Source: Mycobacteriales bacterium (GTDB lineage Bacteria; Actinomycetota; Actinomycetes; BP-191). From it: a DNA stretch of 64,000 nt. Positions 20,351 to 42,526 of the stretch are shown here, piece by piece (positions within the stretch are counted from its first letter, which is position 1; the number at the start of each line of letters is the position of its first letter). A program made the translations under genes and the position numbers. A model generated the notes under the pieces. That model did no database searches and had not been told where the DNA came from. It saw nothing but the letters and a program-made list of their open reading frames with translations. The DNA is taken from contig JBKJUS010000107.1 of assembly GCA_046590575.1 (NCBI GenBank), positions 9,934-73,933 on the forward strand, given 5' to 3'.

Positions 20351-20354
20351 CCCC

Positions 20355-21791: not shown

Positions 21792-21859
21792 CGCGACTCG
21801 ACCGAGGTCGAGGTCGCCCTGCAGCAGCTCGCCGACGCCGCCGACGAGGACCGACGGGC

Positions 21860-23761: not shown

Positions 23762-23789
23762 GGGCTAAGGGCTCCTTCGTGCGCTGGGA

Positions 23790-25154: not shown

Positions 25155-25309
25155 GGGCGGAACCCCTTACGTATGTGACCGCTGCACCTACTGGCGAGGA
25201 CCTTACAACGCGCGGCTCGCATTGTGAACGTAGGTGGACTATCCGTTTCGACCGAACATGAGCGACACTGAGTGCCGGACACATCCACTGACCTCGGACG
25301 GAGTTTTGC

Positions 25310-25582
25310 ATGTGCCTCGGCATCCCCGGTGAGATCGTCGAGCTCGGGCCGGCAGACGAGCTCGCCATGGTCAATGTGGGTGGCGTGCGCCGGCAGGTGA
25401 ACGTTGGACTGCTGACGGGTGAGGACGCCGTCGGCGTCGGCGACTGGGTGCTGATCCACGTCGGCTTCGCGATGAGCAAGATCGACGAGGCCGAGGCCGC
25501 GTCGACATTGGAGTTCCTCCACAGCCTTGGGGCGACCTTCGACGAAGAGCTGGCCGCCCTGATTGAGAGCCAGATCGAATGA
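25310..25582 (+). CDS. hypC: hydrogenase maturation factor HypC/HupF
   Basis: Begins MCLGIPGEIVEL, the invariant MC(L/I)(G/A)(I/V)P start. Length 90 aa. Confidence 0.9.
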   Translation: MCLGIPGEIVELGPADELAMVNVGGVRRQVNVGLLTGEDAVGVGDWVLIHVGFAMSKIDEAEAASTLEFLHSLGATFDEELAALIESQIE

Positions 25583-26712: not shown

Positions 26713-27782
26713 GCCGGACCGAGTCCGAGGTGCAGGCCGGCATCGAGCGCGCTCGTCGGGCGCGGCCCCGATTGCGTGACGAGCGCATCACGATGGCGCA
26801 CGGCGCGGGAGGCAAGGCCAGCGCGACGCTGATCGAGGCCCTCTTCCTGCCGGCGTTGCACAATCCTTCGCTCGCCATGCTGTCCGATGCTGGGCTGGTC
26901 GATGTGCCGGGCGGCACGCTGGCGATGTCGACCGACGCGTACGTCGTACGCCCGCTGCGTTTCCCAGGTGGCTCCATCGGCGAGCTCGCCGTCAATGGCA
27001 CGATCAACGACTTGGCTGTCTCTGGAGCCCGAGCACTCGCACTCTCGCTGGCCTTCGTGCTCGAAGAGGGCTTGGACATGGAGGTGCTCAGGGCAGAGGT
27101 GGCTGCCGTTGCTAGCGCCGCAGCAGCCGCGGGCGTGCCGGTTATCACCGGGGACACCAAGGTGGTCGAGCGCGGAAAGGCCGATGGGATGTACGTCGTC
27201 ACCACGGGTGTCGGCGTAGTCGAGCTCGCCGGCCTCGGTGCCACGGCGATGCGCCCGGGTGACAAGGTCCTCCTCTCCGGGGCGGTCGGTGACCACGGGA
27301 TCGCCATCCTGCTGGCCCGCGGTGACCTCGGTCTCGAGGCCGACGTCGAGTCCGACACGAAGCCACTGTGGTCGGCGGTGAAGACGCTGGGGGAGGCGGC
27401 TGGCTCGGGGTTGCGAGTCATGCGCGACGCGACCCGGGGCGGGGTTGCGACAGTCCTCAACGAGCTGGCCCAGGCGGCTGACCTCGGCGTCGTGGTCGAC
27501 GAAGGTGCCGTGCCCGTGCACACCGCCGTACGTGGGGCGTGCGAGCTGCTCGGCCTTGATCCACTCTACGTCGCCAACGAGGGCTTGTTGGTGGCTGTCG
27601 TCGCGCCCGGGGTCGCCGATGAGGCTCTGGCGGCACTGCAGGCGATGCCCCGCGGAGGGGAGGCAGCTGTGGTCGGAGAGATCGCCGCTGAGCCGCCTGG
27701 GATGGTGCTGGTCCGCACTGAGGTTGGTGGGCACCGAATCATGGACATGCTGATCGGCGACCCGCTGCCCCGGATCTGCTGA
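26709..27782 (+). CDS. hypE: hydrogenase maturation factor HypE (carbamoyl dehydratase)
   Basis: AIR-synthase-like fold ending in PRIC. The ATG overlaps the hypD stop (ATGA). The track ORF 26406..27782 has a spurious N-terminal extension. Confidence 0.9.
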   Translation: MSRTESEVQAGIERARRARPRLRDERITMAHGAGGKASATLIEALFLPALHNPSLAMLSDAGLVDVPGGTLAMSTDAYVVRPLRFPGGSIGELAVNGTINDLAVSGARALALSLAFVLEEGLDMEVLRAEVAAVASAAAAAGVPVITGDTKVVERGKADGMYVVTTGVGVVELAGLGATAMRPGDKVLLSGAVGDHGIAILLARGDLGLEADVESDTKPLWSAVKTLGEAAGSGLRVMRDATRGGVATVLNELAQAADLGVVVDEGAVPVHTAVRGACELLGLDPLYVANEGLLVAVVAPGVADEALAALQAMPRGGEAAVVGEIAAEPPGMVLVRTEVGGHRIMDMLIGDPLPRIC

Positions 27783-28762
27783 TGTCGATCGTGGCGGCCG
27801 CCCGCAAGGTGGCCGAGCGGCTGGGCGGTGGAGGGACGCTGCTCGTGCACGGCGAGGGCGAGTGGGCGCTCGACGCGCACCACGTCTCCGTCGAGTTCGT
27901 CCACCCGGTAATCGTCGGGAAGCGGTCCTTTCCGGCGATGGTCGTGACGGACCCAGCCGCCCTCGTCGTGGTCGCGCGGCCGGGTGACGTCGTGCTGACT
28001 CTCGGGGCAGCGCTGGAGATGGTCGATGCGGCGCGTCGGGCCGATCTGCCGGTGGTCCCCTTGGTGGCGCAGCGCAAGGACGACATGGTGGCGCAGTACC
28101 ACCTGCTCTGGGAGCTGGCCCACCTCTTTCTCGAAGATGGGGGGATCACTGAGGACGCGGATCTGGCGTTTCTCTACGGCAGCGCCGACGCGGCGGACCT
28201 CGAGCGCGGCGCGGAGCAGTCGTGCGCGGCAAAGTCACGCGAAATCGGAGAGCTTCGCCGCCAGGTTTTGGAGCAGCAGGACGCCGCGCTCGACGCGTGC
28301 GCCCGGTTGATCGCCGGTCGTGTCCGCGAGGGTGGGCGAGTGCTGACCTTCGGCAACGGCGGCAGTGCCACGGACGCCGCGTCGGTCGCTGCTGCGTTCC
28401 GCCGCTGCGGAGTGGCCGCGCACTGCCTCACCGATGAGCCGGCGGTGCTGACTGCACTAGCCAACGACGTGGGCTTTGAGGTCGTCTTCGCCCGTCAGGT
28501 GGCAACGTTCGGGGGAGCGCTCGACGTGGCCATCGGGCTCTCGACGAGCGGCGGGTCAACCAACCTGCTCGCAGCGTTTGTCCAGGCACGAGAGCGCGGG
28601 TTGCTCACCGTGGGCTTTGCCGGGTACGACGGTGGTGCGATGGCGTCCGCTGGCACCATTGACCACCTGTTCGTCGTGCCTTCGGAGAGTGTCCACCGGA
28701 TCCAAGAAGCGCAGAGCTCGCTCTATGCCGAGCTGGTCGAGCGGGCGGCGGCGCTCAGGTAG
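27782..28762 (+). CDS. tandem SIS-domain protein (phosphoheptose-isomerase-like), hyp-operon associated
   Basis: FGNGGSATDAAS and LSTSGGSTNLL are SIS signatures. The start overlaps the hypE stop. Confidence 0.7.
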   Translation: MSIVAAARKVAERLGGGGTLLVHGEGEWALDAHHVSVEFVHPVIVGKRSFPAMVVTDPAALVVVARPGDVVLTLGAALEMVDAARRADLPVVPLVAQRKDDMVAQYHLLWELAHLFLEDGGITEDADLAFLYGSADAADLERGAEQSCAAKSREIGELRRQVLEQQDAALDACARLIAGRVREGGRVLTFGNGGSATDAASVAAAFRRCGVAAHCLTDEPAVLTALANDVGFEVVFARQVATFGGALDVAIGLSTSGGSTNLLAAFVQARERGLLTVGFAGYDGGAMASAGTIDHLFVVPSESVHRIQEAQSSLYAELVERAAALR

Positions 28763-29464: not shown

Positions 29465-31492
29465 TTAGCCGGTGAGCGCTCGGCGGACGAATCGGTCCAG
29501 CCGGATCTCGGAGTATGACGCGAGCCCACGCTCGACAGAGGCGACATCGCGCTCGGCGAGGCCGTTCACTCGCTGCGCCTCGGTGAGCTCGCGGACCAGT
29601 CGCTCTCGGACTAGCGCCGCCTTGTGGCGACCCCCTGATGCGTGGCGGTCCAACCGTGACTGCCGGACGGCCTCCCGGCGGCGCACCGACGCCGCGTAGG
29701 TCGCGGCGTCGGCGGGCAGCTGCGCATTGCGTTCGTCCAGCACCTTCGCTTGCCGGTAGTACTTGGCCCGGATCGCAGCCGCGAGAGCGCTCGGGAGCGC
29801 GGCGGGCTGCGTGGCACGTGCTGCAGTTTCGGTATCACGGCGCCAGGCGCGGATCGTCTGGATCCGGTCGAAGCCGAAGCCGGGCACCCGCCTCGTCTGG
29901 CCGGACCGAATCCAGAAGAACGCGCTGTGGTCGAATCGACCCTCCACCCGCGCGGGAGTCACCGTCGTGAAGTCCGCCGCCGTCCGGATGCCGGACGCGG
30001 CGAGCGCGCGGAGGGAGCGGGACGGAAGTCCCTGCAGATGTCGAGGGTCCAGCGGCGTAGCGGCGAGCGCGCCGATCACGTGAGCACGCTGCAGCAGCCT
30101 CAGGGAGTTGGCGAGCTCGCTGAGCTCGGCACCGCGCAAGGCAGCGCGCTCCATCTCGTACGCCGTGCGTCGGTGTGCGACCCAGCGCTCAATGTCGGCG
30201 AGCTCAGCGCGCTGCTGCTCAGTCTGGTCGGTGGATCGTGAACCACGAGGGCCGTCACGACGGTCCCATTCGCGATCGTGGGCGCGCAGGGCCACTTCGG
30301 CGGCCTCAACGGCGATGGATGCGAGACGGGCTGTCCGGCGACGATCGCGCACTACGGCGCCCTGGCATCGGCGACGGCGGTACTCGGGCGTGGATAAGAA
30401 GAACAGCCACTGAGTGACCGTGCTCGCGACCGCGACGAGCGCGACCAGGAGTGCAGCCGCACTCCCCGCAACAATGCCTGACACTGCGAGAATGAGGACG
30501 ATCGCAGCCAGCACCGGCATCGCCCATGCCGCGGTTCTAGTCGGCGCCCCGACCTCGCGGAACCGGACGGTGAGGTCGGCGGGAACCATCCCCGCTGTGG
30601 AGTCGAGTGGGGGGACGCTGCCGCGCTGCGCCTCCTCGCAGATCCGGCGCAAGGCATCTCCGGCGTCGCGCAAAGGGGGCAGGTCATGCTCCTGCAGGGC
30701 GCGGCGGGCTGGCGTGGTAGGCCCTCCGAAGTCGGTCTGGCGGAATAGGAGGCAGTCGTCACCCCCATCGAGCGCGATCCACAGACTGGGGTCGTGCACC
30801 AAGGCGACGAGGCAGAGGTGGATGACCCAGCACGAGAAGGCATCGACCTGCGGGCCGAAGTCCTCGAGCCGACGGCCCGGCGGCTGGTAGTGCGGGTGCC
30901 CGCGCTCGGTGCCCGTGCACCCGTCGAGTGCGGGCACGTACATCCCGTCGTAGTCGATGAGGCGCAGAGTGCCGTCCTCGGTCACCAGCAGGTTGCCGTG
31001 CTGCAGGTCGCCGTGTGCCAGGCCGTCCAACCGTAGTGAGCCCACGAGAGCGCCGAACTGCTTGGCGAGGGCGGCCAGCCGCTCCGGCTCCCACAGATGC
31101 GTTTCGATGTAGCCGATGAGGCTCTGAGCTTCGACCCACTCCATCTTCAGCGCTGGATACCAGCGGCCGTACACCCGGACACCGCGCTCGAGCAGCTCGA
31201 AGCCGACGGCCCACGGACGTGGTCGCGCTCGCAGCTCCTCGCCGATCGCGGCGTAGCGCCGCTGCTGGTCCGGGGCGAACCGGGTGAAGCACTTCACCGC
31301 GAAACGCTGGCCGGTCGGCGTCACGACCCGGAAGACGCTGGCGAAGTTGCCGCTGCGCGGCCGCGGGAGACCAATGGAGTCCAGCTCGACGACGCCCGCT
31401 GCCAGGTCCGGGTCGGCAAAACAGGACGCCGGGTTCTGCAGCGCGTCGCGGTAGTCCGCGCCCGTCGGGAAGCTGGTCGGCAGGAGTGTCAT
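29465..31492 (-). CDS. membrane-anchored Ser/Thr protein-kinase-like protein (TerY-P triad kinase)
   Basis: Kinase core: FAVKCF (VAIK-like), HGDLQHGNLLV (catalytic loop) and IDYDG (DFG-like). A central TM helix is followed by a long coiled-coil tail. The start overlaps the stop of the PP2C gene. Confidence 0.7.
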   Translation of the reverse strand: MTLLPTSFPTGADYRDALQNPASCFADPDLAAGVVELDSIGLPRPRSGNFASVFRVVTPTGQRFAVKCFTRFAPDQQRRYAAIGEELRARPRPWAVGFELLERGVRVYGRWYPALKMEWVEAQSLIGYIETHLWEPERLAALAKQFGALVGSLRLDGLAHGDLQHGNLLVTEDGTLRLIDYDGMYVPALDGCTGTERGHPHYQPPGRRLEDFGPQVDAFSCWVIHLCLVALVHDPSLWIALDGGDDCLLFRQTDFGGPTTPARRALQEHDLPPLRDAGDALRRICEEAQRGSVPPLDSTAGMVPADLTVRFREVGAPTRTAAWAMPVLAAIVLILAVSGIVAGSAAALLVALVAVASTVTQWLFFLSTPEYRRRRCQGAVVRDRRRTARLASIAVEAAEVALRAHDREWDRRDGPRGSRSTDQTEQQRAELADIERWVAHRRTAYEMERAALRGAELSELANSLRLLQRAHVIGALAATPLDPRHLQGLPSRSLRALAASGIRTAADFTTVTPARVEGRFDHSAFFWIRSGQTRRVPGFGFDRIQTIRAWRRDTETAARATQPAALPSALAAAIRAKYYRQAKVLDERNAQLPADAATYAASVRRREAVRQSRLDRHASGGRHKAALVRERLVRELTEAQRVNGLAERDVASVERGLASYSEIRLDRFVRRALTG

Positions 31493-32256
31493 CGGCTGCT
31501 TGCCGGCTCGAGCACCAGGGCGGTCACGTCGTCGTCGCGCATCTCACCGGTACGCCGCAGTCCGCTTGCCCAGGCGCGCTGGGCCGTCCGACCCTCCCGG
31601 GCAACCTCAGTGAGGTGGTCGACCGGGGGTGAGTTCTGCTCGCACTGCGCAAGAAACCACTGCGCCACCGCGTCGGTGGCTAACACGAATCGGTCCCCGG
31701 TCATCCACGCACCTTGCATCAATTCGACCTCTGGTGCAGCACCGAGGCTCGACACGAGCGCGGGTCGGTTGCCGAAATCCGCCGCCGCCGTGAGCGGAAA
31801 AGCGGTCAGGAGACGACCGTCACGGAGGTGGAACAGGCAAGCGTCGCCGACCGCGGCGCAGCTGAACTGGCCCCCAGCCGCGTCGGCTTCAGAAGTCAGC
31901 TCCAGTGACAGCACGGTCGCCCAGGCGCCGCGCTCCAGCTTCGCCTGCTCGTACCAGCGGATCGGTGTGCCGCGCCGGGCCCGGGCGTCGCGGTAGCGAC
32001 CGACGGCTGCGGGCCACGCGGCGACCGCGCGTTCGACCGCAATGTGGATGTCCGCTGGGGTTGCCCGGGTGCAGCAGCGGACCAGCAGCTGCGCCCACAG
32101 GCCGGCCAGCACGCTCTCGGTCGCACCGTCGGCCACCGCTGCCTGGAGACGGGGAACCGCCTCCTCCACGATTCGGTGGGGCCAGGAGGCGTCTTCGTAC
32201 TCGCGGTCGGTGCTGCCCTCTTTGGGAACCCGGACGCGTGCCAGCTGGGCGCGCAC
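31489..32256 (-). CDS. PP2C-family (PPM) protein phosphatase (TerY-P triad phosphatase)
   Basis: ...DASWPH..., FSCAAVGDACLFH, DRFVLATDAV and DDVTALVL are PP2C-like motifs. It is translationally coupled between the vWA and kinase genes. Confidence 0.65.
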   Translation of the reverse strand: MRAQLARVRVPKEGSTDREYEDASWPHRIVEEAVPRLQAAVADGATESVLAGLWAQLLVRCCTRATPADIHIAVERAVAAWPAAVGRYRDARARRGTPIRWYEQAKLERGAWATVLSLELTSEADAAGGQFSCAAVGDACLFHLRDGRLLTAFPLTAAADFGNRPALVSSLGAAPEVELMQGAWMTGDRFVLATDAVAQWFLAQCEQNSPPVDHLTEVAREGRTAQRAWASGLRRTGEMRDDDVTALVLEPASSR

Positions 32257-33095
32257 TAGCGAACGTCGCCGGCCTGGGTGCCGATGTCGAGGAACTGCAC
32301 CACAGCGGTCACGTCCGCGTTGAACACGAAGCCGCGGGTGGCTTCGGAGACCCGGTATCCCTGCTGCTCGGCGAAGGTGCGCATGTGCCCCGGGAGCAGG
32401 CTCGACATCGCGAAGAGGGTGCGGGCATATGGATCGGGAAGACCGACCTCGGTGTCGGGGAAGGCCACCGGAGCGGAGCGGTCGGAGGAGACGTGCAGGT
32501 TGAAAAGCAGCACCCGGCCGTCCTCGCTGCTGAGCTCACGAACAGCTTCAGCTGCTGGTGAGGGGTCACCCTCGGACGACTCGCCGTCGGTCAGGTTGAG
32601 CACGACCGGCGGGAAGCAGCGGGGGTGCTCCGCAAGCCACCCAGCAAGGGTGGTCCGAGCTAGCTCGAGAGCTTGCGGCATCGGGGTTCCGCCGTCGGCC
32701 CGCGGCTCTACCCACGTCGGGAACTGCACAGTGGTGGCGACCAGGCCCCCGGCGCCGTCCGGCACCATCTTCTTGCGCTCCTCGAGCCGGGTGGGTGAGT
32801 CGGCAACCTCGCTGAGTGGGACGAGCAGCCGGTCTGCGAGAGACCCGCCGAGAGCGGGTCCCAGAGTGGCGCCGTACCCAATGACCCCGATGTGGAAGTA
32901 GTCGCGCACGCCCTCTTCCTTGGCACATTTGACTGATAGCTCGGACAACAGCCGGTTGAGGGAATCAGCGACGACATCAGACTTGCGCTGCGGCACCTCG
33001 CCGCCGCCGATCCGATCGGACATCGACGCGGACTGGTCGAGCAAGAATAAGAAGCACGTCGGATTGCCGCGGCTGATCTGCGCCGTGTACGCCAT
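32256..33095 (-). CDS. von Willebrand factor A (vWA) domain protein, TerY-like
   Basis: The MIDAS motif is FLLDQSASM and NLTDGES. A cytosolic vWA sits upstream of the PP2C and kinase genes. Confidence 0.8.
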   Translation of the reverse strand: MAYTAQISRGNPTCFLFLLDQSASMSDRIGGGEVPQRKSDVVADSLNRLLSELSVKCAKEEGVRDYFHIGVIGYGATLGPALGGSLADRLLVPLSEVADSPTRLEERKKMVPDGAGGLVATTVQFPTWVEPRADGGTPMPQALELARTTLAGWLAEHPRCFPPVVLNLTDGESSEGDPSPAAEAVRELSSEDGRVLLFNLHVSSDRSAPVAFPDTEVGLPDPYARTLFAMSSLLPGHMRTFAEQQGYRVSEATRGFVFNADVTAVVQFLDIGTQAGDVR

Positions 33096-33158: not shown

Positions 33159-34964
33159 CTACGGCAGGGGGCCAGGAGCAGCCACCACCACGCGCTGGGA
33201 GTCGTCAATGCGGCGGGTGAGACCGAGTCGGTCGAGGTGCTCGAGCAGCGGGACCGCAACCCGACGTGTGGTGCCCAGCGCTTGGCGCGCCTGGCTCATG
33301 GAGAAGGGCTGAGGAAGCGCTGCAAGCGTCGGCAGTGCCGATTCGACGGCGTCCGGGAGAAGGTAGATCCCGTCCGTCAGCGCCAGCAACATCCCGTGCC
33401 GCACCGCCGTCGCAAGAACGGTTGCGGTCAATCCGAGTGAGTCGAGATCCGCGGCGGCCGGCGCGGCGTACGGCGTCTCCGCAAGACGTCGGGCAACCTG
33501 GCTCAGCGCGTCGCTTTGGCCGTCAGTGAAGCCAGGCGCGGCGCCGGCCCGGCGTACCAAGCCGCCGCTCGACTCCAGAGTCGGCACATCGGCGGCCAAC
33601 GCCGAAAGCAGCCTGGCGTCAGGGGCACCGACGGCTTGCCGTGCTGCCTCTGTCGGCAGACCACCGCGCAGCGGGTGCCGGTGTTCGTCATCTGCCACCG
33701 CGGCCACCAGTAAGTGCTGCCATTGCTGCCATTGCGCGGCGGAGATCAACCAGTTCCCCACCTCCACCGTGTCCTCGGGGGCTGGGTCGTCCTGGTGGAT
33801 CACTCCCCACGCCGCGAGCTCTTCCCGGCGGACCGCACCGCGTCGGCGCACCTCGCCAGCCGGGTCCGGTGCGCCGCTCATGCCCTGCAGAGACGTGGCG
33901 CGCCTCGCCGCCCCGCCGCGCCGTGACAGCGGCTCCGGCGCGGCGTCGAGAACGACCACTCCGGCGACCACCCGCTGCTCTCCTGGGTCACGCAGCAGGG
34001 CCCGATCGCCGGGCTGAAGCGGTAGTGCCGCTGTGAGGTGCAGCCGGGCGGTGTCATCGCCGAGTCGGCGTACGTCGACGGCCACAGCGGCGGATCCGAC
34101 GTGCATCAGCAGGGTGGCCGGCAAGCGGGCCGAGCCTTCCGACCCAGCGTCCAGCCGCACGTCGACCAGGTCGGTGGTTCGCCAGCCGCCGACGGTCACC
34201 AGCGCATTGCCCCGGCGTACGTCGGAGACATCGACACCTCGCAGGTTGACCGCGACGCGAGCTACGGCCTCGACCTGGTCGGCATGACGTTTGAGGCTCT
34301 CCAGCCCGCGGACCCGTACCTGGAGGCCCTGCGGGGAGATCTGCAGCGTGTCTCCCACGCGCAGGGTTCCCGCGCCGAGCGTGCCGGTCACCACCGTGCC
34401 GCTGCCCCGGATGGTGAACGCCCGGTCGACCCACAAGCGAACGCGCGCAGCAGGGTCCGGCTCCGGGAGATCACCTACTAGACGATCGAGCGCACTCCGC
34501 AGGTCGTCGACACCTGCACCGGTGACTCCGCTCACCGCTACCGCTTCGACATCACCGAGAGCCGTGGCCCGGAGGTGCTCCAACGCTTCCGCCATGGCCG
34601 GGCCGGGGCTGGCGAGGTCGCAGCGGGTGATCGCGAGCACGCCATGCCGGACCTGAAGTGCGTCCAGCGCTGCCAAGTGCTCGACCGACTGCCGACTCCA
34701 ACCTTCGTCAGCAGCCACGACGAAGAGGACCGCCGGCGCCGGCCCGACGCCGGCGAGCATGTTGGGCACGAAGCGCTGGTGCCCCGGAACGTCGACGAAG
34801 GCGATCTCCACTCCGGACGGCAACGTGGTCCAGCCGAATCCGAGGTCGATCGTCATGCCCCGCCGGCGTTCCTCCGCCCAGCGGTCAGGCTCCATGCCGG
34901 TGAGCGCGCGGACCAACGTCGACTTGCCGTGATCCACATGGCCTGCTGTCGCGACGACGTGCAA
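33159..34964 (-). CDS. selB: selenocysteine-specific translation elongation factor SelB
   Basis: MHVVATAGHVDHGKSTLVRALTGMEPDRWAEERRRGMTIDLGF...FVDVPGHQRF is collinear with E. coli SelB (GHVDHGKTTL...RGMTIDLGY...DVPGHEKF). Length 601 aa with a long C-terminal SECIS-binding extension. Confidence 0.9.
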   Translation of the reverse strand: MHVVATAGHVDHGKSTLVRALTGMEPDRWAEERRRGMTIDLGFGWTTLPSGVEIAFVDVPGHQRFVPNMLAGVGPAPAVLFVVAADEGWSRQSVEHLAALDALQVRHGVLAITRCDLASPGPAMAEALEHLRATALGDVEAVAVSGVTGAGVDDLRSALDRLVGDLPEPDPAARVRLWVDRAFTIRGSGTVVTGTLGAGTLRVGDTLQISPQGLQVRVRGLESLKRHADQVEAVARVAVNLRGVDVSDVRRGNALVTVGGWRTTDLVDVRLDAGSEGSARLPATLLMHVGSAAVAVDVRRLGDDTARLHLTAALPLQPGDRALLRDPGEQRVVAGVVVLDAAPEPLSRRGGAARRATSLQGMSGAPDPAGEVRRRGAVRREELAAWGVIHQDDPAPEDTVEVGNWLISAAQWQQWQHLLVAAVADDEHRHPLRGGLPTEAARQAVGAPDARLLSALAADVPTLESSGGLVRRAGAAPGFTDGQSDALSQVARRLAETPYAAPAAADLDSLGLTATVLATAVRHGMLLALTDGIYLLPDAVESALPTLAALPQPFSMSQARQALGTTRRVAVPLLEHLDRLGLTRRIDDSQRVVVAAPGPLP

Positions 34965-34967
34965 ACG

Positions 34968-36269
34968 TCAGCCCGCCGCTCCGGCAACAGCCAACACCGC
35001 GTCGCAGAGCTCGGCATCACGCGCAGCGGGAACGCAGCGGAGGTCGAGCAGACAACGGTCGCGCTCGACCCGGCCGACGACACAGGGGTCGCCGAGCCGC
35101 AGCGGCTCGGCAAAGCCAGGAGGCAGGGTGACCGCGGCGCCGGGCAGCACGAGACCGGGCGCGCCGCCGCCCCCGACCGCACCGTCGGAGTCCTCCACGG
35201 TGGCGTCGACACCGCGGCTCACCAAGTCGGCGACCATGGCCGCTGCCCGGAGACGCAACCCATCCTGGCTCTCCGCGAGCGCCGATTGGGTCGGCGTAGC
35301 CGGCCCGCGGATAGTTGCTTCGAGAGCTGCGAGGGTGAGCTTGTCGACACGCAGCGCGCGGGCCAGCGGATGCCGTCGTAGTCGTTCAACCAGGTCCGCG
35401 CGGCCGAGGATCAGACCGGCCTGCGGTCCGCCGAGCAGCTTGTCGCCGCTGCACGTCACCAAGCCAGCACCGGCCTCAAGCGCAGAGGTCGCATCCGGCT
35501 CCGCCGGCAGGATGGGATCGGGGTGGAGCAACCCAGAGCCGATGTCGACGACGAGCGGTGGGCCGAGCGCGGCGAGCGCAGCCACGCTGACCGAGCTGGT
35601 GTAGCCCACGACGGCAAAGTTCGACGGGTGAATCTTCACGATGCACCCGGTGGATTCGTTGACCGCGTCGGCGTAGTCCTCAGCCGAGGTCCGGTTGGTA
35701 GTGCCCACCTCACGGATCCGCGCTCCGGTCGAGCAGATCAGCTCCGGCAGGCGGAACCCGTCCCCGATCTCCACCAGCTCACCCCGGCTGACGACAACCT
35801 CGCGTTCGGCAGCCAGGGCGGTGACCGCAAGGACAAGGGCTGCTGCTCCGTTGTTGACGGTGAGGGCTGCCTCTGCGGCGGGCACTGCCGAGAGCAGCGC
35901 TGACGTCGTGCCGCGTCCCCGCGACGCGCGACGTCCGGTGGCCACGTCGTACTCAAGGTCGACGTAGCCCGCGGCCATCGTGACGGCGGCCACCGCCTGG
36001 TCCGAGAGAGCGGCCCGGCCAAGATTGGTGTGCAGCACGACGCCGGTTGCGTTCAGCACCGGGCGCATCCGCACCGGCACGCCGGCCAGGGCGCGGGCGA
36101 CCTCGTCGGCGACCTGATCGGGTGCGATCTCTCCGGCGCGGGCGCGGGCCACGGTATCGATCACGACCCGTTTTGCTTCCGTCCGGTTCACGCGCTCGAG
36201 CGCGGCGAGCACGCGGGGCTCGGCGAGCACGGAGTCGACACGTGGCAGCTGACGCCTGCTGTCTGTCAT
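34968..36269 (-). CDS. selA: L-seryl-tRNA(Sec) selenium transferase SelA
   Basis: LPRVDSVL, NATGVVLHTNLGRA and the PLP-fold region match SelA. The stop abuts the selB start, and the start is the ATG at 36269. Confidence 0.9.
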   Translation of the reverse strand: MTDSRRQLPRVDSVLAEPRVLAALERVNRTEAKRVVIDTVARARAGEIAPDQVADEVARALAGVPVRMRPVLNATGVVLHTNLGRAALSDQAVAAVTMAAGYVDLEYDVATGRRASRGRGTTSALLSAVPAAEAALTVNNGAAALVLAVTALAAEREVVVSRGELVEIGDGFRLPELICSTGARIREVGTTNRTSAEDYADAVNESTGCIVKIHPSNFAVVGYTSSVSVAALAALGPPLVVDIGSGLLHPDPILPAEPDATSALEAGAGLVTCSGDKLLGGPQAGLILGRADLVERLRRHPLARALRVDKLTLAALEATIRGPATPTQSALAESQDGLRLRAAAMVADLVSRGVDATVEDSDGAVGGGGAPGLVLPGAAVTLPPGFAEPLRLGDPCVVGRVERDRCLLDLRCVPAARDAELCDAVLAVAGAAG

Positions 36270-36567
36270 GAGCTCCCTCGGCCACACCGGTTTTGAAGCC
36301 TGACCTTACCGATTTCGGCGACCCTGCTGAGCGGCGCAGCCTTGGCCGTGACGGCGGAACTCGGACAGGAAACCTCCACCGTTGGGCGGACGCTTCCGCG
36401 CCGGGCGCGATGCATCCTGTGCTGATGCCGTCCTCGGGACTCTCGCCAGTCACCCTGTCCGCATCCACGCTCCGGACGCATCCATCGGAGACCCCGTGAA
36501 GCTTCCTGTTCGTTCCGCACTCGTCGTCGCCGCGGCTTCCGCTCTGGTGTTCCGTAGTCAGAGCATG

Positions 36568-36663
36568 TGGCGGAGGCGGACGGGAATCGAACCCGCCTGA
36601 CCGAGATCCTCGGCCACACCGGTTTTGAAGACCGGGAGGGCCACCAGGCACCTGTACGCCTCC
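36568..36663 (-). tRNA. selC: tRNA-Sec (selC), anticodon UCA, 96 nt, CCA encoded
   Basis: The reverse complement reads GGAGGCGTACAGGTGCCTGGTGGCCCTCCCGGTCTTCAAAACCGGTGTGGCCGAGGATCTCGGTCAGGCGGGTTCGATTCCCGTCCGCCTCCGCCA. The anticodon loop CUUCAAA carries UCA, there is a long variable arm, the GTTCGATTC T-loop is present, and it has an extended acceptor stem. It lies between selA and selD. Confidence 0.85.
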
Positions 36664-36725
36664 AGCGCAGGAGCCTATTGCAGCGGCGCGACACACATCG
36701 TGGCCATCGACATAGCATCGCGGCT

Positions 36726-37739
36726 ATGACGGTGACGGAGAGCGCGAAAACGTATCGGCTGACGCAGTTTGCCCACGGGGGTGGCTGTGCCTGCAAGATC
36801 CCGCCCGGCGAGCTCGAGCAGATCGTCGCCGGTCTGGTCGGACTTGATCCGTCCGACGGGACCGCGGAGCTGCTCGTCGGTCTGGACGGGGGTGACGACG
36901 CTGCAGCGGTGCGCATCGATGCGAAGACCGCGGTGCTGTCGACGGCCGACTTCTTCACCCCCGTCGTCGACGACGCCTACGACTGGGGCCGGATCGCTGC
37001 CGCCAACGCGTTGTCGGACATCTACGCGATGGGCGGCACCCCTCTGCTCGCCATCAACTTGCTCGCGTGGCCGCGAGACGTCCTGCCCCTGGAGCTGGCG
37101 ACCGAAGTGCTCAGAGGCGGTTTGGATGTTGCCCGCGAGGCACGCTGCCACGTGGCCGGCGGACACAGCATCGACGATCCCGAGCCGAAGTACGGCATGG
37201 CCGTCACCGGGGTCGCCCATCCCGATCGCCTGTTCCGCAATGACGCGGGACGCCCGGGCGACGTGCTCTCGTTGACCAAGCCGCTGGGCATCGGCGTGCT
37301 TAACAGCCGGCACAAGCAGACGGGGGAGGTTTTTCCCCAGGCCATCGACGCTATGACTTCTTTGAACCGCGATGCGGCAGGTCACGCGCTGGCTGCCGGT
37401 GTCCGTTGCGCGACGGATGTGACTGGCTTCGGCCTGCTGGGCCATCTGTACAAACTCGCGCGCGCCAGTGGAGTCACCGCCGAGATCGACTCCAGCGCTG
37501 TGCCCTATCTCGACGGCGCAGTGGCCGCGGCGCGCGACGGCTTTGTTAGTGGTGGGACGCGCCGCAACCTCGACTGGGTCGACCCGCACGTCGACTTCGG
37601 CACCATGGATGAGGTGCAGCGGCTGCTCTTGGCCGACGCGCAGACGTCAGGGGGCCTCCTCGTCGCCGGTGAGGTGCCGGGCGCGCCGATCATCGGACGC
37701 CTGGTCGCGCGCGACGGAGTGACCGTTCGGGTCCGGTGA
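36726..37739 (+). CDS. selD: selenide, water dikinase SelD (selenophosphate synthetase), Cys-type
   Basis: MTVTESAKTYRLTQFAHGGGCACKIPPG... is collinear with E. coli SelD (RLTQYSHGAGCGCKISP). The active-site residue is Cys, not Sec. Confidence 0.9.
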   Translation: MTVTESAKTYRLTQFAHGGGCACKIPPGELEQIVAGLVGLDPSDGTAELLVGLDGGDDAAAVRIDAKTAVLSTADFFTPVVDDAYDWGRIAAANALSDIYAMGGTPLLAINLLAWPRDVLPLELATEVLRGGLDVAREARCHVAGGHSIDDPEPKYGMAVTGVAHPDRLFRNDAGRPGDVLSLTKPLGIGVLNSRHKQTGEVFPQAIDAMTSLNRDAAGHALAAGVRCATDVTGFGLLGHLYKLARASGVTAEIDSSAVPYLDGAVAAARDGFVSGGTRRNLDWVDPHVDFGTMDEVQRLLLADAQTSGGLLVAGEVPGAPIIGRLVARDGVTVRVR

Positions 37740-37858: not shown

Positions 37859-38107
37859 GTGGTGCTGTGGTGGATCGGCAACGCCGTCCTACTGCTGGTT
37901 GTGGTCCCGCTCGTCGTCATTCTTGCGGACCGACTGCTCAAGCCAGTGCGCGAGATCCGCGCTTACGCCGACGACATCCTCGACCACGGGGTCAGCCTGA
38001 CCAGCGCCCTCGACTCCGTGCCTAAGCTGGTGACGACCACTGAGCTGACGGGCGTCGCTAAGGGCCTCGTCGGTCGCTACGGTGCGGCGCTGCAAAAACT
38101 GCTGTGA
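37859..38107 (+). CDS. small single-pass membrane protein, member 1 of a 5-gene paralogous family
   Basis: 82 aa with an N-terminal TM (WWIGNAVLLLVVVPLVVILA) and a ~50-aa helical tail similar to the following ORFs. Confidence 0.5.
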   Translation: MVLWWIGNAVLLLVVVPLVVILADRLLKPVREIRAYADDILDHGVSLTSALDSVPKLVTTTELTGVAKGLVGRYGAALQKLL

Positions 38108-38150
38108 ACAGCCCCGGCGCCACCATGACAGCCACCCCGGAAGGGACACG

Positions 38151-38429
38151 ATGAGCGCGGCCGCGATTACCACCCTGGTCGGCGTCGGACTGCTCGCCGG
38201 CGCACTGGTGCTCTACCTCAGCATCGTCGCCTACCACCTGTCGAAGGTGAACTTCGCTCTCGGCACCGTCGTCATTGGGGTGCGGGCGATTGCCAACCAG
38301 ACCCAGCCGGTCGAGGCCGTCGTCGGCAGCATCGCCGGCGACGTGGCCGCAATCGACGACGCGCTCAAGGCCTTGGTAGTGCTCGCGACCACTCCGAAGC
38401 CGGGCGTTCGCGCCCGGGCATCCCGCTGA
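38151..38429 (+). CDS. small single-pass membrane protein, family member 2
   Basis: The internal ATG has the RBS aagggacacg. The sequence is MSAAAITTLVGVGLLAGALVLYLSIVAY... followed by a helical tail. Confidence 0.5.
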   Translation: MSAAAITTLVGVGLLAGALVLYLSIVAYHLSKVNFALGTVVIGVRAIANQTQPVEAVVGSIAGDVAAIDDALKALVVLATTPKPGVRARASR

Positions 38430-38454
38430 CCGAACGCTGACGAGAGGACGCCGC

Positions 38455-38631
38455 ATGGCTTACAAGTGGGGTTGACGGGATTCCGACCACACCTGCAGGT
38501 GGCAGGCCAAGGGCGAGACCGAAGAAGAGTTGTTGGCGAAGATCGCTGAGCACGTGAAGAAGAAGCACGCCGTTCACACCGTGTCGGACACCATCGTCAA
38601 CTTCGTGGTTCAGGACGTGAAGAAGACGTGA
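38455..38631 (+). CDS. DUF1059-like mini-protein with in-frame TGA at codon 7 (38473..38475); candidate selenoprotein
   Basis: The RBS gagagga is 6 nt upstream of the ATG. The translation is MAYKWG-U-RDSDHTCRWQAKGETEEELLAKIAEHVKKKHAVHTVSDTIVNFVVQDVKKT. It resembles the DUF1059 layout (Mxx-aromatic-xCxD...C...TEEEL...HAKxxHG) with the TGA at the first conserved Cys. A GC hairpin cacc-tgca-ggtg starts about 14 nt after the TGA. Not in the ORF track because it is under the size cutoff. Confidence 0.5.
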
Positions 38632-38652
38632 GCTCGCCGAAGGAGAGTTCGG

Positions 38653-38922
38653 ATGGATGACCTTGTTGCGGTCAGCCTCAGGGGCTGGTACATCGGATTC
38701 GCCATCGCCGGTGTCGCGATCGCGGTGGTCGTCGTGCTCGTCGCGATCATCATGACGATGGCTCGTCGGATCGCGATCCAGGCGGCGGCCATCACCGAGG
38801 GGCTCGACCAGGCGCGGGTGCACACGCTTGCGCTGTGGGATGTCGCGAAGGTCAACGAAGGCCTGACGAGCATCGTGGGTAGCGCCGCAGCCGCGCGAGG
38901 GGTCTTGGAGGCAAAGCTGTGA
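38653..38922 (+). CDS. small single-pass membrane protein, family member 3
   Basis: 89 aa, TM at IGFAIAGVAIAVVVVLVAIIM. The stop overlaps the next start. Confidence 0.5.
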   Translation: MDDLVAVSLRGWYIGFAIAGVAIAVVVVLVAIIMTMARRIAIQAAAITEGLDQARVHTLALWDVAKVNEGLTSIVGSAAAARGVLEAKL

Positions 38923-39200
38923 ACGTCGCGCTGGCCGACAACGAGATCACCATCTGGTGGGTGACCCTTGGCCTTGGTCTTACCGTCGCGCTCGTGGTCA
39001 TCATCCTGCTCTCACTGCTGACGGGTCTGGTGCGCGACATCGACCACAACGTCGACGACGTGTGGCAGACCGCGACCCGCGTCGCCCGTAACACCACGAC
39101 GGTGTGGATACTTGGTCAGACAGCCGGCCTATCGGCGGCGTTGCGCGACGAGGTCGCCCAGCATGCCGCTCTCTTCGAGGCTAACAAGAGGCGACGATGA
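38919..39200 (+). CDS. small single-pass membrane protein, family member 4
   Basis: 93 aa, TM at IWWVTLGLGLTVALVVIILLSLL. ATGA overlap with the next gene. Confidence 0.5.
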   Translation: MNVALADNEITIWWVTLGLGLTVALVVIILLSLLTGLVRDIDHNVDDVWQTATRVARNTTTVWILGQTAGLSAALRDEVAQHAALFEANKRRR

Positions 39201-39451
39201 CACTGCGCATCACCTTGTCGGTGCTGGAGATCGTTCTGGTCGTCGCGATCCTCGCCTTCTTCCTCATCCGCATCTCTCGCCTGCTCCGGCGCATCTCGAT
39301 CACGCTCGCAAGGGTGACGTGGGGGGTGCGCACCGTGGAGAAGCAGTGCTTCCAGATCGGCCCGGCTGCCGACCGCATCAACGCCAATCTGGCCACTGCT
39401 GCGGCCGGTCTCGAGAGCGCCGCAGTGATGGCCGAGCGTCTCGGTCGCTGA
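39197..39451 (+). CDS. small single-pass membrane protein, family member 5
   Basis: 84 aa, TM at LSVLEIVLVVAILAFFLI. Confidence 0.5.
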   Translation: MTLRITLSVLEIVLVVAILAFFLIRISRLLRRISITLARVTWGVRTVEKQCFQIGPAADRINANLATAAAGLESAAVMAERLGR

Positions 39452-39455
39452 TGCC

Positions 39456-40589
39456 ATGACCGATGGGGACGCGGAGCCAAGCCGCCCCCCCGACGATGAC
39501 GACGTCGCACTTTCCTTCATCCGAGGTGAGTCGGGGAGGTCATCGTCGGACCTCTCGATCGCCGATGACGTCTTGCTCGCCGCAGGGAAGGTGGCGGCGG
39601 CCTTGCGAGTCGGAGCAGCGACGGTGTTCGTGCGCGCGGACCTGCCCGATGAGTTGGCTCATGCGAAGCTTGCTGTCGAGCGGGCGCTGAGCACAGATGG
39701 TCTGCTTCCGCTCGATCAGAACACCGCCCTCGCCTTGCCGGTGGCTCGACGCCTCGCCAGCGTGGAAGCAGCGAGTTGGGACCTCTGGGGCCGGGACCTG
39801 GCCGACGTCTTCGCGTCGCTGCAGGCGCAGGAACCGGCGGGGGTGGCGACCGCGGGCCCGCCGACCGACGACGTCTCGCTGCCCGAGACGGCCGAGGCGA
39901 GTCAGGTCCCGGTCGAGGAGGCGCCACCCGCGATCCTCGCGGATGAGGAGCTGGCTCGGGACTCGCCGGCCGGGGGTCGCACTCTGGTGGTCGCTGGGAT
40001 CGCGGGTGTCCTCCTGCTGGCGGCGCTGGGTGGCACGTTGACCTATGCACTGCGGGAGCGCGACGCAGCACGCGACGGCGCCAACCCCGGCCCCACGGCC
40101 AGCTCAGGCACAGGCGCGTCCACTGCGCCGGAGGCGCTGGTCGACTACACCGACCCGCGTGGGCGATTCACGATGAGTTACCCCGCCAGTTGGCAGCAGG
40201 TGCAGTCAGACGACACCGACATCGCCCTGCTGCTGCTGGCCGGCGGCAGCGACTCGATGCTCGTTCGCCTCGTCCAGTTGCAGCGAGCCATCGACCCTGC
40301 GGATATCGCTGATGTGAAGTCGGTGACTGATGTCATCGTGCAAACCTCGACGGTCCGGGTTCTGGAGGAGAAGCCGATCACCCTGGGGCCAGGAGTGCAG
40401 GGCTACTACTACCTCTACACGTTCACTGACCCAGTCACGAAGCAGGAGGGGGTGCACTCGCACTTCTTCCTCTTCGAAGGCGCGGTGATGCACACGCTGG
40501 TCTTCCAGGCCCTGCCAGGGGATGGCTTCGGAGCCCTCGCTCCTGACTTCGACCGGATCGCTCTGAGCTACCGCCCCGCGAAGACCTGA
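39456..40589 (+). CDS. membrane-anchored hypothetical protein with extracytoplasmic C-terminal domain
   Basis: 377 aa with an acidic N-terminus, a central TM (LVVAGIAGVLLLAALGGTLTYAL) and a C-terminal globular domain. The start is 5 nt after the previous stop. Confidence 0.5.
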   Translation: MTDGDAEPSRPPDDDDVALSFIRGESGRSSSDLSIADDVLLAAGKVAAALRVGAATVFVRADLPDELAHAKLAVERALSTDGLLPLDQNTALALPVARRLASVEAASWDLWGRDLADVFASLQAQEPAGVATAGPPTDDVSLPETAEASQVPVEEAPPAILADEELARDSPAGGRTLVVAGIAGVLLLAALGGTLTYALRERDAARDGANPGPTASSGTGASTAPEALVDYTDPRGRFTMSYPASWQQVQSDDTDIALLLLAGGSDSMLVRLVQLQRAIDPADIADVKSVTDVIVQTSTVRVLEEKPITLGPGVQGYYYLYTFTDPVTKQEGVHSHFFLFEGAVMHTLVFQALPGDGFGALAPDFDRIALSYRPAKT

Positions 40590-40624: not shown

Positions 40625-41242
40625 CTAGCGGGCGCAGGCCTGCCCGCGAACCGCTGCGCTGCAGTCGATGGAGTTGGCGTGCTCGTTGACGTTGGTGGCT
40701 TGGGCCAGGATGTTGCCCGTGTCGGTCTTGATTCCGCGCACCAGAGAGATGACGACGTCCGCGCGTTGGTTGATCCCCTGCACCCCGTTGTTGATCGATG
40801 TGACGACGGGTGACAGGGACTGGAACGAGCCGAGGATGGACGACGCATTGCGGTTGATCGCCGACGCGGTGGAGTTGATCTGCATCACAGTCGAATTGAT
40901 CGCGGAGGCATTGCCGAGGATCGCCTCGACGTTGCCGTCGATCGCCGTTGCCGCGTCGATGATCTGACCCGCTTGGGCTGAAAGGGGCTCGGCTGCTGCC
41001 AGGATCTCAGCAGTCAACCGGTCTGTGTCGTCGAGCACCGCAGTGCCCGCAGTCTCGATGTCTACTGGGTCCACCGACGTGACGATGTCCTTCACCCGGT
41101 CGTCGATCTGCGCAGCGGCGATCGTCGTCCGGGTCAACGTCGTGACGGCGAAGAGGGCGAAGGCGACCACCACAGTCATGTGCGTGGCAATGATGCCGTC
41201 GTCATTGCGCACGACCCGCAGGCGAGAGGTCATCGATTGCAC
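40625..41242 (-). CDS. single-pass membrane protein with heptad-like xINSTAx repeats and C-terminal Cys pair, paralog 1 of 3
   Basis: TM at VVVAFALFAVTTL. Repeats include AINSTV, INSTASAINRNASSILG and GINQRA. The C-terminus is SIDCSAAVRGQACAR. An alternative start at 41233 would give an ATGA overlap. Confidence 0.5.
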   Translation of the reverse strand: MQSMTSRLRVVRNDDGIIATHMTVVVAFALFAVTTLTRTTIAAAQIDDRVKDIVTSVDPVDIETAGTAVLDDTDRLTAEILAAAEPLSAQAGQIIDAATAIDGNVEAILGNASAINSTVMQINSTASAINRNASSILGSFQSLSPVVTSINNGVQGINQRADVVISLVRGIKTDTGNILAQATNVNEHANSIDCSAAVRGQACAR

Positions 41243-41904
41243 GAGGGCCCCCCGCGGACGGCAGCCGAGTTGCAGATGCTCTCGAGGTGGACGTTGACGT
41301 CCTTCAGCCTGACCAGGATGTTCGCCGTGTCCTGCCGGGCCGGCGCCAGCACGCTGTTGGCGACCGCGACTCGACGGTGGATGTTCTGCACGCCCAGCTT
41401 GTCAGCGGGGTCGTCGGCGTCGATCAGGGTGCCCCGGATGCCCGTGGCCAGCCTGAGCACGGAGACGAGAACGCTGGAGGTGTCCTTCAGCGACCCGTCG
41501 GTGTCCTGCAGGGAGCCGTCGGTGTTCTTCAGCGAGCTGTCGACCGAACTGAGGCGGCCGTTGATCGAGCCAAGAGCGCCGACGATCTGGTCAGCCTGAC
41601 CGGAGATCGGCTTTAGCGCCGTGTCGATGCCGGTCAGGTTCTTGTTCGCGATCTCGATCTGGTCCGGGAGCGTCTTGACGTTGCCGCCGGCACCGGTCAC
41701 CGAACGGTCAGCGACGCCGAGGTTCTTATTGATCGAGGCCAGTGAGTTGGTGATGACCACGAGGTAGACGACGACCACCAGGGTGACCAGTGTCAGCAGG
41801 ACGACCCAGATCTTGATCCAGCGGTCGTAATAGCTCTTGTCAGCGTTGCGGGCGGCCGGTCGGGCGGTGAGCGAACGCTCGTCAGGTGCAGTCGCAATAG
41901 GCAT
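41230..41904 (-). CDS. single-pass membrane protein with repeats and C-terminal Cys pair, paralog 2
   Basis: The internal ATG at 41904 has the RBS agggggac. TM at IWVVLLTLVTLVVVVYLVVI. The C-terminus is SICNSAAVRGGPSCNR. Confidence 0.5.
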   Translation of the reverse strand: MPIATAPDERSLTARPAARNADKSYYDRWIKIWVVLLTLVTLVVVVYLVVITNSLASINKNLGVADRSVTGAGGNVKTLPDQIEIANKNLTGIDTALKPISGQADQIVGALGSINGRLSSVDSSLKNTDGSLQDTDGSLKDTSSVLVSVLRLATGIRGTLIDADDPADKLGVQNIHRRVAVANSVLAPARQDTANILVRLKDVNVHLESICNSAAVRGGPSCNR

Positions 41905-41914
41905 CAGGGTCCCC

Positions 41915-42526
41915 CTAGGCGCAATCGCCGTCGGCGCCACGGGCGCCGCCGAGTCCACGGTCGATGCAGGCGGCCTTCACGTGGGCGCGCTGTGCCTCGG
42001 TGACCAAATTGGTCGTATCGCTGCGAATCAGCTTGGCAATGGCGATGGTGCGGTCGAGGTTGAGGTTGATGAGCTCGACTCCACGGTTGATCCGTTTGGC
42101 GACGTCGAGGATCTGCGCTGCCTCGTTGTTGATCCCGCCGGCCGTGCTGTTAATCGCTCCGGCCGTGCTGTTAATGCTGCGGGCGGTGGAGTTGATGCTG
42201 CCGGCGCTGCCATTGATCGTCCCGGCGAGACCGTTGACCGAGCCGGCTAGGCGGACGATCTCCGCTAGCTTGCCCTGCAGTGGTGAGGCTGAGTCGAGGA
42301 TTGATGTCGCGAGCGCGTTGGTCTTCTCCAGCTGGATGATCGCGTCGGTCGACTCGTTGATGCCGCGCCCGGTGCGGGCGATCCGCTCCGCCTTCTCGTT
42401 GATGCGCTCCGCAGTCCAGGCCGTGCGCTGCAGCAGGCCGGCGGCTGCCACCACCACGACCAGCGTCGCGATCAGCCCGAGGACCGCAAGTCCGGAGTCA
42501 CCTTGAGGACGTGGTCGCGATCGCAT
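41915..42526 (-). CDS. single-pass membrane protein with SINSTAx heptad repeats and C-terminal Cys pair, paralog 3
   Basis: TM at LAVLGLIATLVVVVAAAGLL. Repeats are GTINGSAGSINSTARSINSTAGAINSTAGGINNEAA. The C-terminus is AACIDRGLGGARGADGDCA. Confidence 0.55.
   Translation of the reverse strand: MRSRPRPQGDSGLAVLGLIATLVVVVAAAGLLQRTAWTAERINEKAERIARTGRGINESTDAIIQLEKTNALATSILDSASPLQGKLAEIVRLAGSVNGLAGTINGSAGSINSTARSINSTAGAINSTAGGINNEAAQILDVAKRINRGVELINLNLDRTIAIAKLIRSDTTNLVTEAQRAHVKAACIDRGLGGARGADGDCA

Follow-up and report, generated by a model that had tools for sequence, protein, structure and literature searches.

A cassette of five small membrane proteins as a candidate anchor for trace-gas oxidoreductases in Actinobacteria

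Soils take up atmospheric H2 and CO in large part through high-affinity hydrogenases and molybdenum-containing carbon monoxide dehydrogenases (Mo-CODHs), and trace-gas microbiology still asks how these soluble enzymes are coupled to the respiratory chain. The closest described counterpart of the genes considered here is a set of five single-pass proteins, HylTM1–5, which share 12–30% mutual identity and are encoded between HylS and HylL of [NiFe]-hydrogenase group 1l (Ortiz et al., bioRxiv 10.1101/2020.08.06.239558). In that study, HylTM4 carries a C-terminal tri-Cys motif, a membrane-anchoring and electron-relay role was proposed for HylTM1–5, and the legend of the group 1l cluster figure lists CbiA, DUF1059, PadR, SIS and TPR (bioRxiv 10.1101/2020.08.06.239558). 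In a 2026 AlphaFold model, the five proteins wind around one another as tube-like scaffolds and so keep the cytosolic enzyme at the membrane (PMC13554262). Here, we analysed a 64-kb stretch of DNA from a Mycobacteriales bacterium (contig JBKJUS010000107.1, positions 9,934 to 73,933; hereafter the window), which carries five consecutive genes for small bitopic membrane proteins, S1 to S5 (37859–39451), and compared it with related loci fetched for this purpose (L-numbers), mostly contigs from metagenome-assembled genomes (MAGs) or metagenomes.

S1–S5 were likened to HylTM1–5 by published description rather than by comparing sequences. Both sets consist of exactly five consecutive small single-pass open reading frames (ORFs), with low mutual identity (16–30% among S1–S5 in colinear alignments), and both are linked genetically to a high-affinity hydrogenase that faces the cytoplasm and bears a long C-terminal extension on its small subunit. 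Genes for DUF1059, CbiA, PadR, SIS and TPR proteins are common to group 1l clusters and the window. The arrangement differs: HylTM1–5 sit between the small- and large-subunit genes, whereas in the window the genes for the small (HydS) and large (HydL) subunits are adjacent and the cassette lies 13 kb away (it stands upstream of hydS in L103 and L104).

Similar in composition are the group 1m [NiFe]-hydrogenases, found only in Actinobacteriota, whose clusters 'typically' hold DUF1059 and two single-transmembrane (TM) proteins of 82–92 aa (Ray et al. 2022, PMC9561532). S1 (82 aa) and S2 (92 aa) match this description and neighbour a DUF1059 gene. The window also shares HybD/HycI, TPR, BirA-like, CooC-type ATPase and FeS-assembly proteins, the adjacent small- and large-subunit genes and the actinobacterial host, and this accessory set surrounds the cassette in L099 too. 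We therefore refer to the window hydrogenase as 'group 1m'-type, an assignment made by cluster composition, not phylogeny. The published account lists two small proteins against the five found here, and is silent on paralogy, on the putative selenocysteine (Sec) codon, on a CODH-operon version and on the neighbouring genes L6 and M1–M3 described below (PMC9561532). An initial annotation of the locus, made from its sequence, was incomplete in another respect, giving neither the hydrogenase and CODH accessory context nor the published group 1m set of two genes plus DUF1059 (PMC9561532). For Mo-CODH, CoxG was reported to extract menaquinone, and small TM genes go unmentioned (Kropp et al. 2025, PMC12202499). 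CoxG, like S1–S5, concerns how a soluble trace-gas enzyme reaches membrane quinone, and a derived form of the cassette begins 12 nt after coxG; CoxG itself is a START/SRPBCC lipid-binding protein and not homologous to S1–S5.

Unnamed small TM ORFs in two hydrogenase groups, and CoxG as the membrane access of CODH, were already known. The new elements are that the 'two small proteins' of group 1m clusters belong to a conserved cassette of five plausibly paralogous genes, that translation of this cassette can be coupled to that of the gene for the hydrogenase small subunit, that a sister clade forms part of form I cox operons, immediately behind coxG, and that the family is very large (thousands of clusters) and has no Pfam or NCBIfam model. 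With moderate confidence, we read S1–S5 as a hetero-oligomeric membrane anchor, N-terminus out and C-terminus in (N-out/C-in), for cytosolic trace-gas oxidoreductases.

Five small bitopic proteins in one cassette

S1 (37859..38107) has a GTG start and encodes 82 aa beginning M-V-L-W-W-I-G-N, with a TM helix at residues ~5–23 and a predicted cytoplasmic helical tail. It is followed on the same (+) strand by S2 (38151..38429, 92 aa), S3 (38653..38922, 89 aa), S4 (38919..39200, 93 aa) and S5 (39197..39451, 84 aa), all bitopic, the last with a strongly basic juxtamembrane RISRLLRR. The start codons of S4 and S5 overlap the stop codons of S3 (GTGA) and S4 (ATGA) by 4 nt, while the remaining gaps from S1 to the downstream gene L6, including those around a DUF1059 mini-gene between S2 and S3, run 4–43 nt. 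Purine-rich, Shine–Dalgarno-like stretches precede the cassette genes; a promoter and terminator scan of the S1–L6 operon gave nothing above chance. The initial annotation had described five consecutive genes for single-TM proteins of 82–93 aa, several with overlapping stop and start; the genes were borne out, with the overlaps at S3/S4 and S4/S5.

The five genes are genuine, as judged by their codon-position GC content (GC3 0.82–0.86 against GC2 0.38–0.50), their dN/dS ratios, their products, which are identical to the NCBI gene calls on record, and the presence of orthologues of each in many loci. Against the relatives L001 and L002, dN/dS was 0.09–0.38 overall, with 0.09–0.17 for S1, 0.27–0.36 for S2 and 0.13–0.30 for S3, which indicates purifying selection on all five. 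All related loci of sufficient length have S1–S5 together as a compact cassette, and their synteny is kept across three actinobacterial classes. Gene calls in high-GC loci were filtered by GC3, as clustering of all ORFs was dominated by conserved shadow frames. Many long spurious ORFs do arise throughout this high-GC DNA, yet the notion that S1–S5 are chance open frames is already refuted by the coding-type codon-position GC, the dN/dS values, the thousands of homologues and the conserved synteny, and we give it virtually no credence.

A single segment of 19 residues close to the N-terminus of each protein is strongly hydrophobic. Across 35–85 members per family, the N-terminal flank is almost devoid of Lys and Arg (mean 0–0.22), and the 15 residues after the TM helix contain 1.4–3.4. 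By the positive-inside rule, 92–100% of members in all five families are N-out/C-in, which places the tails in the cytoplasm in the predicted topology. An AlphaFold2 model of S1 from a 121-sequence alignment (mean predicted local distance difference test (pLDDT) score 82.6) shows one continuous helix over residues 2–51, followed by short helices at 54–58 and 64–81. As the modelled helix is unbroken, the TM helix would extend ~28 residues into the cytoplasm. Cysteines are rare in S1–S5, and no metal-binding pattern is kept.

Profile–profile comparison with hhalign, using 25–41 non-redundant orthologues per family, aligned S2 with S5 at 97.5% probability (P = 5e-12, 97 columns) and S3 with S4 at 96.6%. 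S1 aligned with S4 (91%) and S3 (79%), and S2 with S4 (69%), while S1–S2, S1–S5, S2–S3, S3–S5 and S4–S5 gave 2–18%; reversed-sequence controls reached at most 16.5%. At the level of profiles, S2 is thus paralogous to S5, and S3 to S4 and S1, giving two clear subgroups, S2/S5 on one side and S1/S3/S4 on the other, which are only weakly joined. Common paralogy of all five is plausible, direct support being confined to some pairs. The claim of five paralogues in the initial annotation therefore stands within each subgroup and is not uniform across them, most cross-pairs falling below 18%. The tail motif that it had quoted as common to all five is found in S1 only.

Neither Pfam nor NCBIfam returned anything for S1–S5 at curated thresholds, in keeping with the earlier remark that no family could be recognised. 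We extended the Pfam scan member by member to 53 diverse S2–S5 members and 121 S1 members. The DUF948 (PF06103) gathering threshold of 37.2 bits was reached by 0 of the 5 window proteins; sub-threshold matches at E of 0.01 or better occurred in 2 of the 53 S2–S5 members (best E = 0.0021) and in 0 of the 121 S1 members. YtxH (PF12732) had no match in the window proteins or in either member set. Phage_holin_3_6 gave a lone weak match in 1 of the 53 S2–S5 members (E = 0.0089) and a second lone match (E = 0.0004) at 20.9 bits, under its 28.4 cut-off. In the absence of any gathering-score match in these scans, we rejected membership of DUF948, YtxH, holin and YhcB families, including the holin, YtxH and DUF948 assignments considered at the outset. 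A HAMP-like identity of S1 was also rejected: the weak similarity to the TM2–HAMP regions of CpxA and methyl-accepting chemotaxis proteins was confined to whole-protein NCBIfam models (E = 0.005–0.04), and neither the window protein nor the 121 members matched Pfam HAMP. A sequence search of the Protein Data Bank (PDB) with S1 gave nothing below E = 0.39.

The S1 family comprises at least 5,883 clusters at 90% identity among 8,000 candidates scored, and an exhaustive HMMER scan recovered 373 clusters at 50% identity with E of 1e-3 or better. The named relatives encountered are labelled 'hypothetical', 'predicted small secreted protein' or, once, automatically 'YhcB (DUF1043 family)' (a JGI cluster).

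Hydrogenase and CO dehydrogenase neighbourhoods

The genes for the [NiFe]-hydrogenase in the window, identified by Pfam, lie on the (−) strand 13 kb upstream of the cassette and encode the large subunit (21860–23761) and the small subunit (23790–25154), the latter with no obvious Tat motif at its N-terminus. They are part of an island (18576–28762) that comprises HycI protease, TPR, BirA-like, a second protease-like gene of 231 aa, HydL, HydS, HypC, HypD and SIS. Cox, RuBisCO and phosphoribulokinase (PRK) genes are absent from the 64-kb window, so that the hydrogenase is the only plausible partner there; we rejected CODH as the partner in this genome on the absence of cox genes from the window. 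The hydrogenase is thus the likely enzyme partner of the cassette at this locus.

Further loci place the two side by side. L103 has the order S1-S2-S3-S4-S5 and, 8 nt further on, a [NiFe]-hydrogenase small-subunit gene whose product shares 71% identity with the window HydS over 295 residues. L104 likewise has S1–S5 followed by the small-subunit gene, here with a 4-nt overlap. The gene upstream of the cassette is not a large subunit in either locus. The cassette of L099 is enclosed in a cluster with HycI, CbiA-type ATPase, DUF4383, NifU, TPR, BirA-like and NiFe large- and small-subunit genes. It adjoins HydL in L019 and L022, with L6 and M1–M3 on the other side, and in L081, L100 and L101, HypC directly follows S2, the order in L100 and L101 being S3-S4-S5-S1-S2. 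Recurring in several arrangements and classes, the hydrogenase linkage is probably the older state.

A second context emerged from a metagenome scan with the S1 alignment, which found 438 relatives among 600 matched stretches, 80 loci being kept. Among the loci that span 6 kb or more, 27 soil contigs in all, 24 have the cassette after coxM-coxS-coxL-xdhC/coxI(YHS)-coxG on the same strand, typically after a gap of 12 nt, with coxD and coxE convergent beyond it. Two of the remaining three lie beside hydrogenase structural genes (L019, L022), and one beside neither. Every complete coxL next to the cassette has the form I signature AYRCSFR, and independent gene calls with Pfam labels confirmed the layout in L097 and L098. 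CODH-linked S1 proteins are 84–87 aa long and share a mean identity of 82% (70–98%), against 82–83 aa and a mean of 42% for hydrogenase- or L6-linked S1; identity between the groups is 38%. The nearest neighbour of an S1 protein has a matching context in 36 of 37 cases. The CODH-linked cassette appears on this evidence to be a derived clade that later became very abundant in soils, and the context-specific S1 subtypes suggest partner specialisation rather than passive hitch-hiking. The literature searched yielded no link of small TM proteins to cox clusters.

Several features of these neighbourhoods were noted in passing. The CoxG proteins encoded before the cassette (L023, L056, L061, L090, L097 and others; ~193 aa) have a conserved Arg-rich amphipathic C-terminal helix, GLRAALMALxRVFRRFFxPY, with a hydropathy (KD19) of 1.0–1.6, lower than is usual for TM helices; rather than crossing the membrane, it may dock on S1–S5. 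Genes for a CoxD-like MoxR AAA ATPase and a CoxE-like VWA protein lie between two hydrogenase gene pairs in L019 (13674–15855, (−) strand) and at the equivalent site in L022, so this CODH-type maturation pair also occurs in hydrogenase clusters. The window itself has four CooC/ParA/CbiA-type P-loop ATPase genes within 8 kb (7343–8107; 12106–12849 and 13583–14395, both (−); 14357–15268), an unusual multiplicity of putative nickel-insertion ATPases, with PadR-like regulators nearby. Genes for a protein-kinase-domain protein (675 aa), a 255-aa ORF and a VWA-domain protein (279 aa) part its hydrogenase island from the sel genes (29465–33095, (−) strand).

A proposed anchor and its alternatives

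In the mechanism that we propose, each of S1–S5 contributes one TM helix, whose short uncharged N-terminus is predicted to lie outside, and an amphipathic helical tail of 50–60 residues, predicted to lie in the cytoplasm. The five tails would bundle into a stalk or platform on which a soluble, cytoplasm-facing trace-gas oxidoreductase could dock, bringing the distal electron-transfer site of the enzyme near the membrane quinone pool. At this locus, the docked enzyme would be the 'group 1m'-type high-affinity [NiFe]-hydrogenase, and the derived clade of the cassette has become part of form I Mo-Cu CODH operons through recruitment. Since no cofactor-binding residues are conserved, the role of S1–S5 would be structural, not that of an electron relay. 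The compact, often translationally coupled five-gene block supports this reading, as do the N-out/C-in prediction, the single long helix of the S1 model and the hydrogenase and cox contexts. Taken with the size of the family, they make the cassette a specific candidate for a common membrane anchor, open to testing.

A number of points weigh against it. The proposed contacts among the S proteins and between them and the enzyme are drawn from gene context and topology, and the topology in turn from a single line of evidence, the positive-inside rule. S1–S5 resemble HylTM1–5 as analogues, by description, and HylTM1–5 are themselves experimentally uncharacterised; the tri-Cys motif of HylTM4 has no equivalent here, as no S1–S5 member has three or more Cys and 0 of 53 S5 proteins have a C-terminal tri-Cys pattern. 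In the window, the cassette shares an operon with L6 instead of with the hydrogenase genes 13 kb away, and L001, L002, L005 and L011 have no hydrogenase or cox genes within 8 kb. As the CODH-linked S1 proteins form one tight clade, the 24 cox loci amount to about one recruitment event. In M. smegmatis, in which CoxG was studied, coxG and the next detected gene are only 1.19 kb apart, with one annotated gene in between; this appears to leave no space for the cassette, which is hence apparently not universal among CoxG-bearing actinobacteria.

A bolder version is doubtful, if possible: S1–S5 would be a universal hetero-pentameric dock, of which two mutually unrelated enzymes, high-affinity [NiFe]-hydrogenase and Mo-Cu CODH with CoxG, use enzyme-specific versions to reach menaquinone, and to which one lineage adds the Sec-containing DUF1059 protein as a redox or metal-handling subunit. 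If true, the cassette would supply the membrane subunit that is missing from the picture of how Actinobacteria oxidise atmospheric H2 and CO.

The same neighbourhoods could instead house a maturation or metal-insertion platform, with S1–S5 keeping the apo-enzyme membrane-bound while cofactors are loaded, together with its assembly factors (CooC/CbiA ATPase, HypC, NifU, CoxD/E/F). Such factors are indeed close by: a CooC-like ATPase beside S1 in L008 and L010, HypC after S2 in L081, L100 and L101, NifU, TPR and HycI around the cassette in L099, and the convergent CoxD and CoxE in cox loci. We consider this unlikely, however, given that no metal-binding residues are conserved and that translational coupling to the small-subunit gene (L103, L104) and the siting behind coxG point to a partner in stoichiometry with the mature enzyme. 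Still less probable, in our judgement, is a single nine-protein envelope complex of S1–S5, L6 and M1–M3 that serves, for example, envelope architecture or transport and merely shares genomic islands with hydrogenase and CODH. The nine genes are contiguous in the window, L001 and L002 and co-occur in L005, L008, L010, L011, L019, L022 and L102, and the N-terminal 80–110 residues of M proteins resemble S proteins (S2/S5–M2 96%, S3–M3 95%). None of the 24 CODH-linked loci has L6 or the M genes, though, and L099, L103 and L104 lack them too; conversely, L6 and M1–M3 occur without S genes, within the flanks covered, in L007, L009 and L012–L016, and the predicted topologies are opposite.

DUF948 (PF06103) and YhcB/DUF1043 proteins have the architecture of S1–S5, an N-terminal TM helix with a helical tail of ~60 residues, and differ in having no five-gene cassettes and no enzyme-operon context. 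This identical architecture, together with the sub-threshold DUF948 matches (2 of 53 members, best E = 0.0021; M3, E = 0.0015) and the one automatic JGI label, would fit S1–S5 as generic small membrane proteins of stress or organisation (DUF948, YhcB, YtxH class) with no specific enzyme partner. That seems improbable to us: no match reaches a gathering score, 0 of 121 S1 members match any such family, and an invariable five-gene set with specific siting in hydrogenase and cox operons is unexpected of general stress proteins.

Lineage-specific genes around the cassette

Between S2 and S3 lies a mini-gene of 58 codons (38456–38631, (+) strand) with an in-frame TGA at codon 7 (38474–38476), which would create a U-x6-C motif if read as Sec. 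With U read as C, its product matches Pfam DUF1059 (PF06348) over positions 3–55 of 56 (E = 1.8e-12, 47.8 bits against a cut-off of 21.1). The TGA is kept at the same codon in the window, L001 (~6723–6899) and L002 (~6813–6989). A SECIS-like hairpin, CCUGC-AGGUG-GCAGG (38493–38507, (+) strand), begins 16 nt downstream of the UGA; a 7-bp version with compensatory changes occupies the equivalent site in L001 and L002. Its fold z-scores are weak (−0.5 to −1.5), and it overlaps conserved codons. The DUF1059 mini-protein may represent an unreported selenoprotein family; no link between DUF1059 and selenoproteins was found in the literature searched, and a PDB sequence search with the mini-protein returned nothing significant.

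The window also holds complete Sec machinery (33159–37739): selB and selA on the (−) strand, tRNA-Sec (36568–36663, (−)) and selD (36726–37739, (+)), which ends 119 nt upstream of S1 and whose product has Cys, not Sec, in its GGGCACK motif. No SelD homologue was present in any of the 102 related loci fetched, so the adjacency is incidental, or of use solely to the inserted candidate Sec gene. The DUF1059 gene itself is confined to the window, L001 and L002/L004, each time between S2 and S3, and is on this distribution a lineage-specific insert outside the core cassette.

The last gene of the operon, L6 (39456..40589, (+) strand), encodes a bitopic protein of 377 aa. Its AlphaFold2 model, from an 18-sequence alignment, shows a folded cytoplasmic N-domain (~10–125, pLDDT ~83) that is kept among homologues, a disordered linker, a TM helix (177–206) and an outer C-terminal domain (225–377, pLDDT ~94). 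By Foldseek, the outer domain matches PsbP (2xb3; E = 1.5e-8, TM-score 0.73) and also resembles the mycobacterial secreted proteins Apa, MTC28 and LpqN. The window L6 scores 18.2 against Pfam PsbP, under the 23.5 cut-off, and PF01789/PF18933 matches are recorded for the homologues P0015 and P0016. The PsbP/Mog1 fold of this domain is a frequent extracytoplasmic scaffold, from which no function can be read. CODH-linked loci lack L6, which in L019 is encoded on the other strand; by this pattern it is a lineage-specific addition outside the core cassette.

These results refine the description of the operon in the initial annotation. A candidate Sec-type gene does lie between the second and third members, and the operon does end in a membrane protein with an extracytoplasmic domain; as part of the cassette proper, neither survived the comparison across loci. 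The position directly downstream of selD is true here and peculiar to this genome, and synteny with selD or DUF1059, proposed as a check, did not extend beyond the window for the former or beyond L001 and L002/L004 for the latter.

Homologues of L6 and an alignment-based genome scan yielded 16 L6-anchored loci from Mycobacteriales, Pseudonocardia and Acidimicrobiia MAGs; a scan with L6 alone retrieved nothing. All five S genes are present, in varying order, in the L6-anchored window, L001, L002/L004, L005, L008, L010 and L011, and S3–S5 in L006. Neighbours include phosphoribulokinase, FBPase and aldolase in L001, RuBisCO-cbbX-PRK in L008 and hypCDEF in L007, L013 and L015; CbbY-like phosphatases and CooC-like ATPases also occur in L6-anchored loci.

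Convergent with L6 are M1 (40625–41242), M2 (41230–41958) and M3 (41915–42526), three paralogous genes on the (−) strand for longer bitopic helical proteins of 203–242 aa. Common to all three are a TM helix, 'I-N' repeats of 7 residues within a long helical region, and a Cys-x7-10-Cys pair at the C-terminus. M1–M3 accompany L6 in 16 of 16 L6-anchored loci, often beside hypCDEF or a CbbY-like phosphatase, and form an associated module outside the cassette. M1 and M2 are predicted to be N-in/C-out, opposite to S1–S5, and M3 weakly matches DUF948 (E = 0.0015). In hhalign, the first 110 residues of M2 align with S2/S5 (96%) and those of M3 with S3 (95%); this similarity of profiles may be architectural, reflecting the pattern of TM and amphipathic helices, rather than a sign of common descent. 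In L010, a separate 151-aa gene resembling the cytoplasmic N-domain of L6 adjoins S5 (6247–6702, (−) strand), which makes a stand-alone form of this domain possible.

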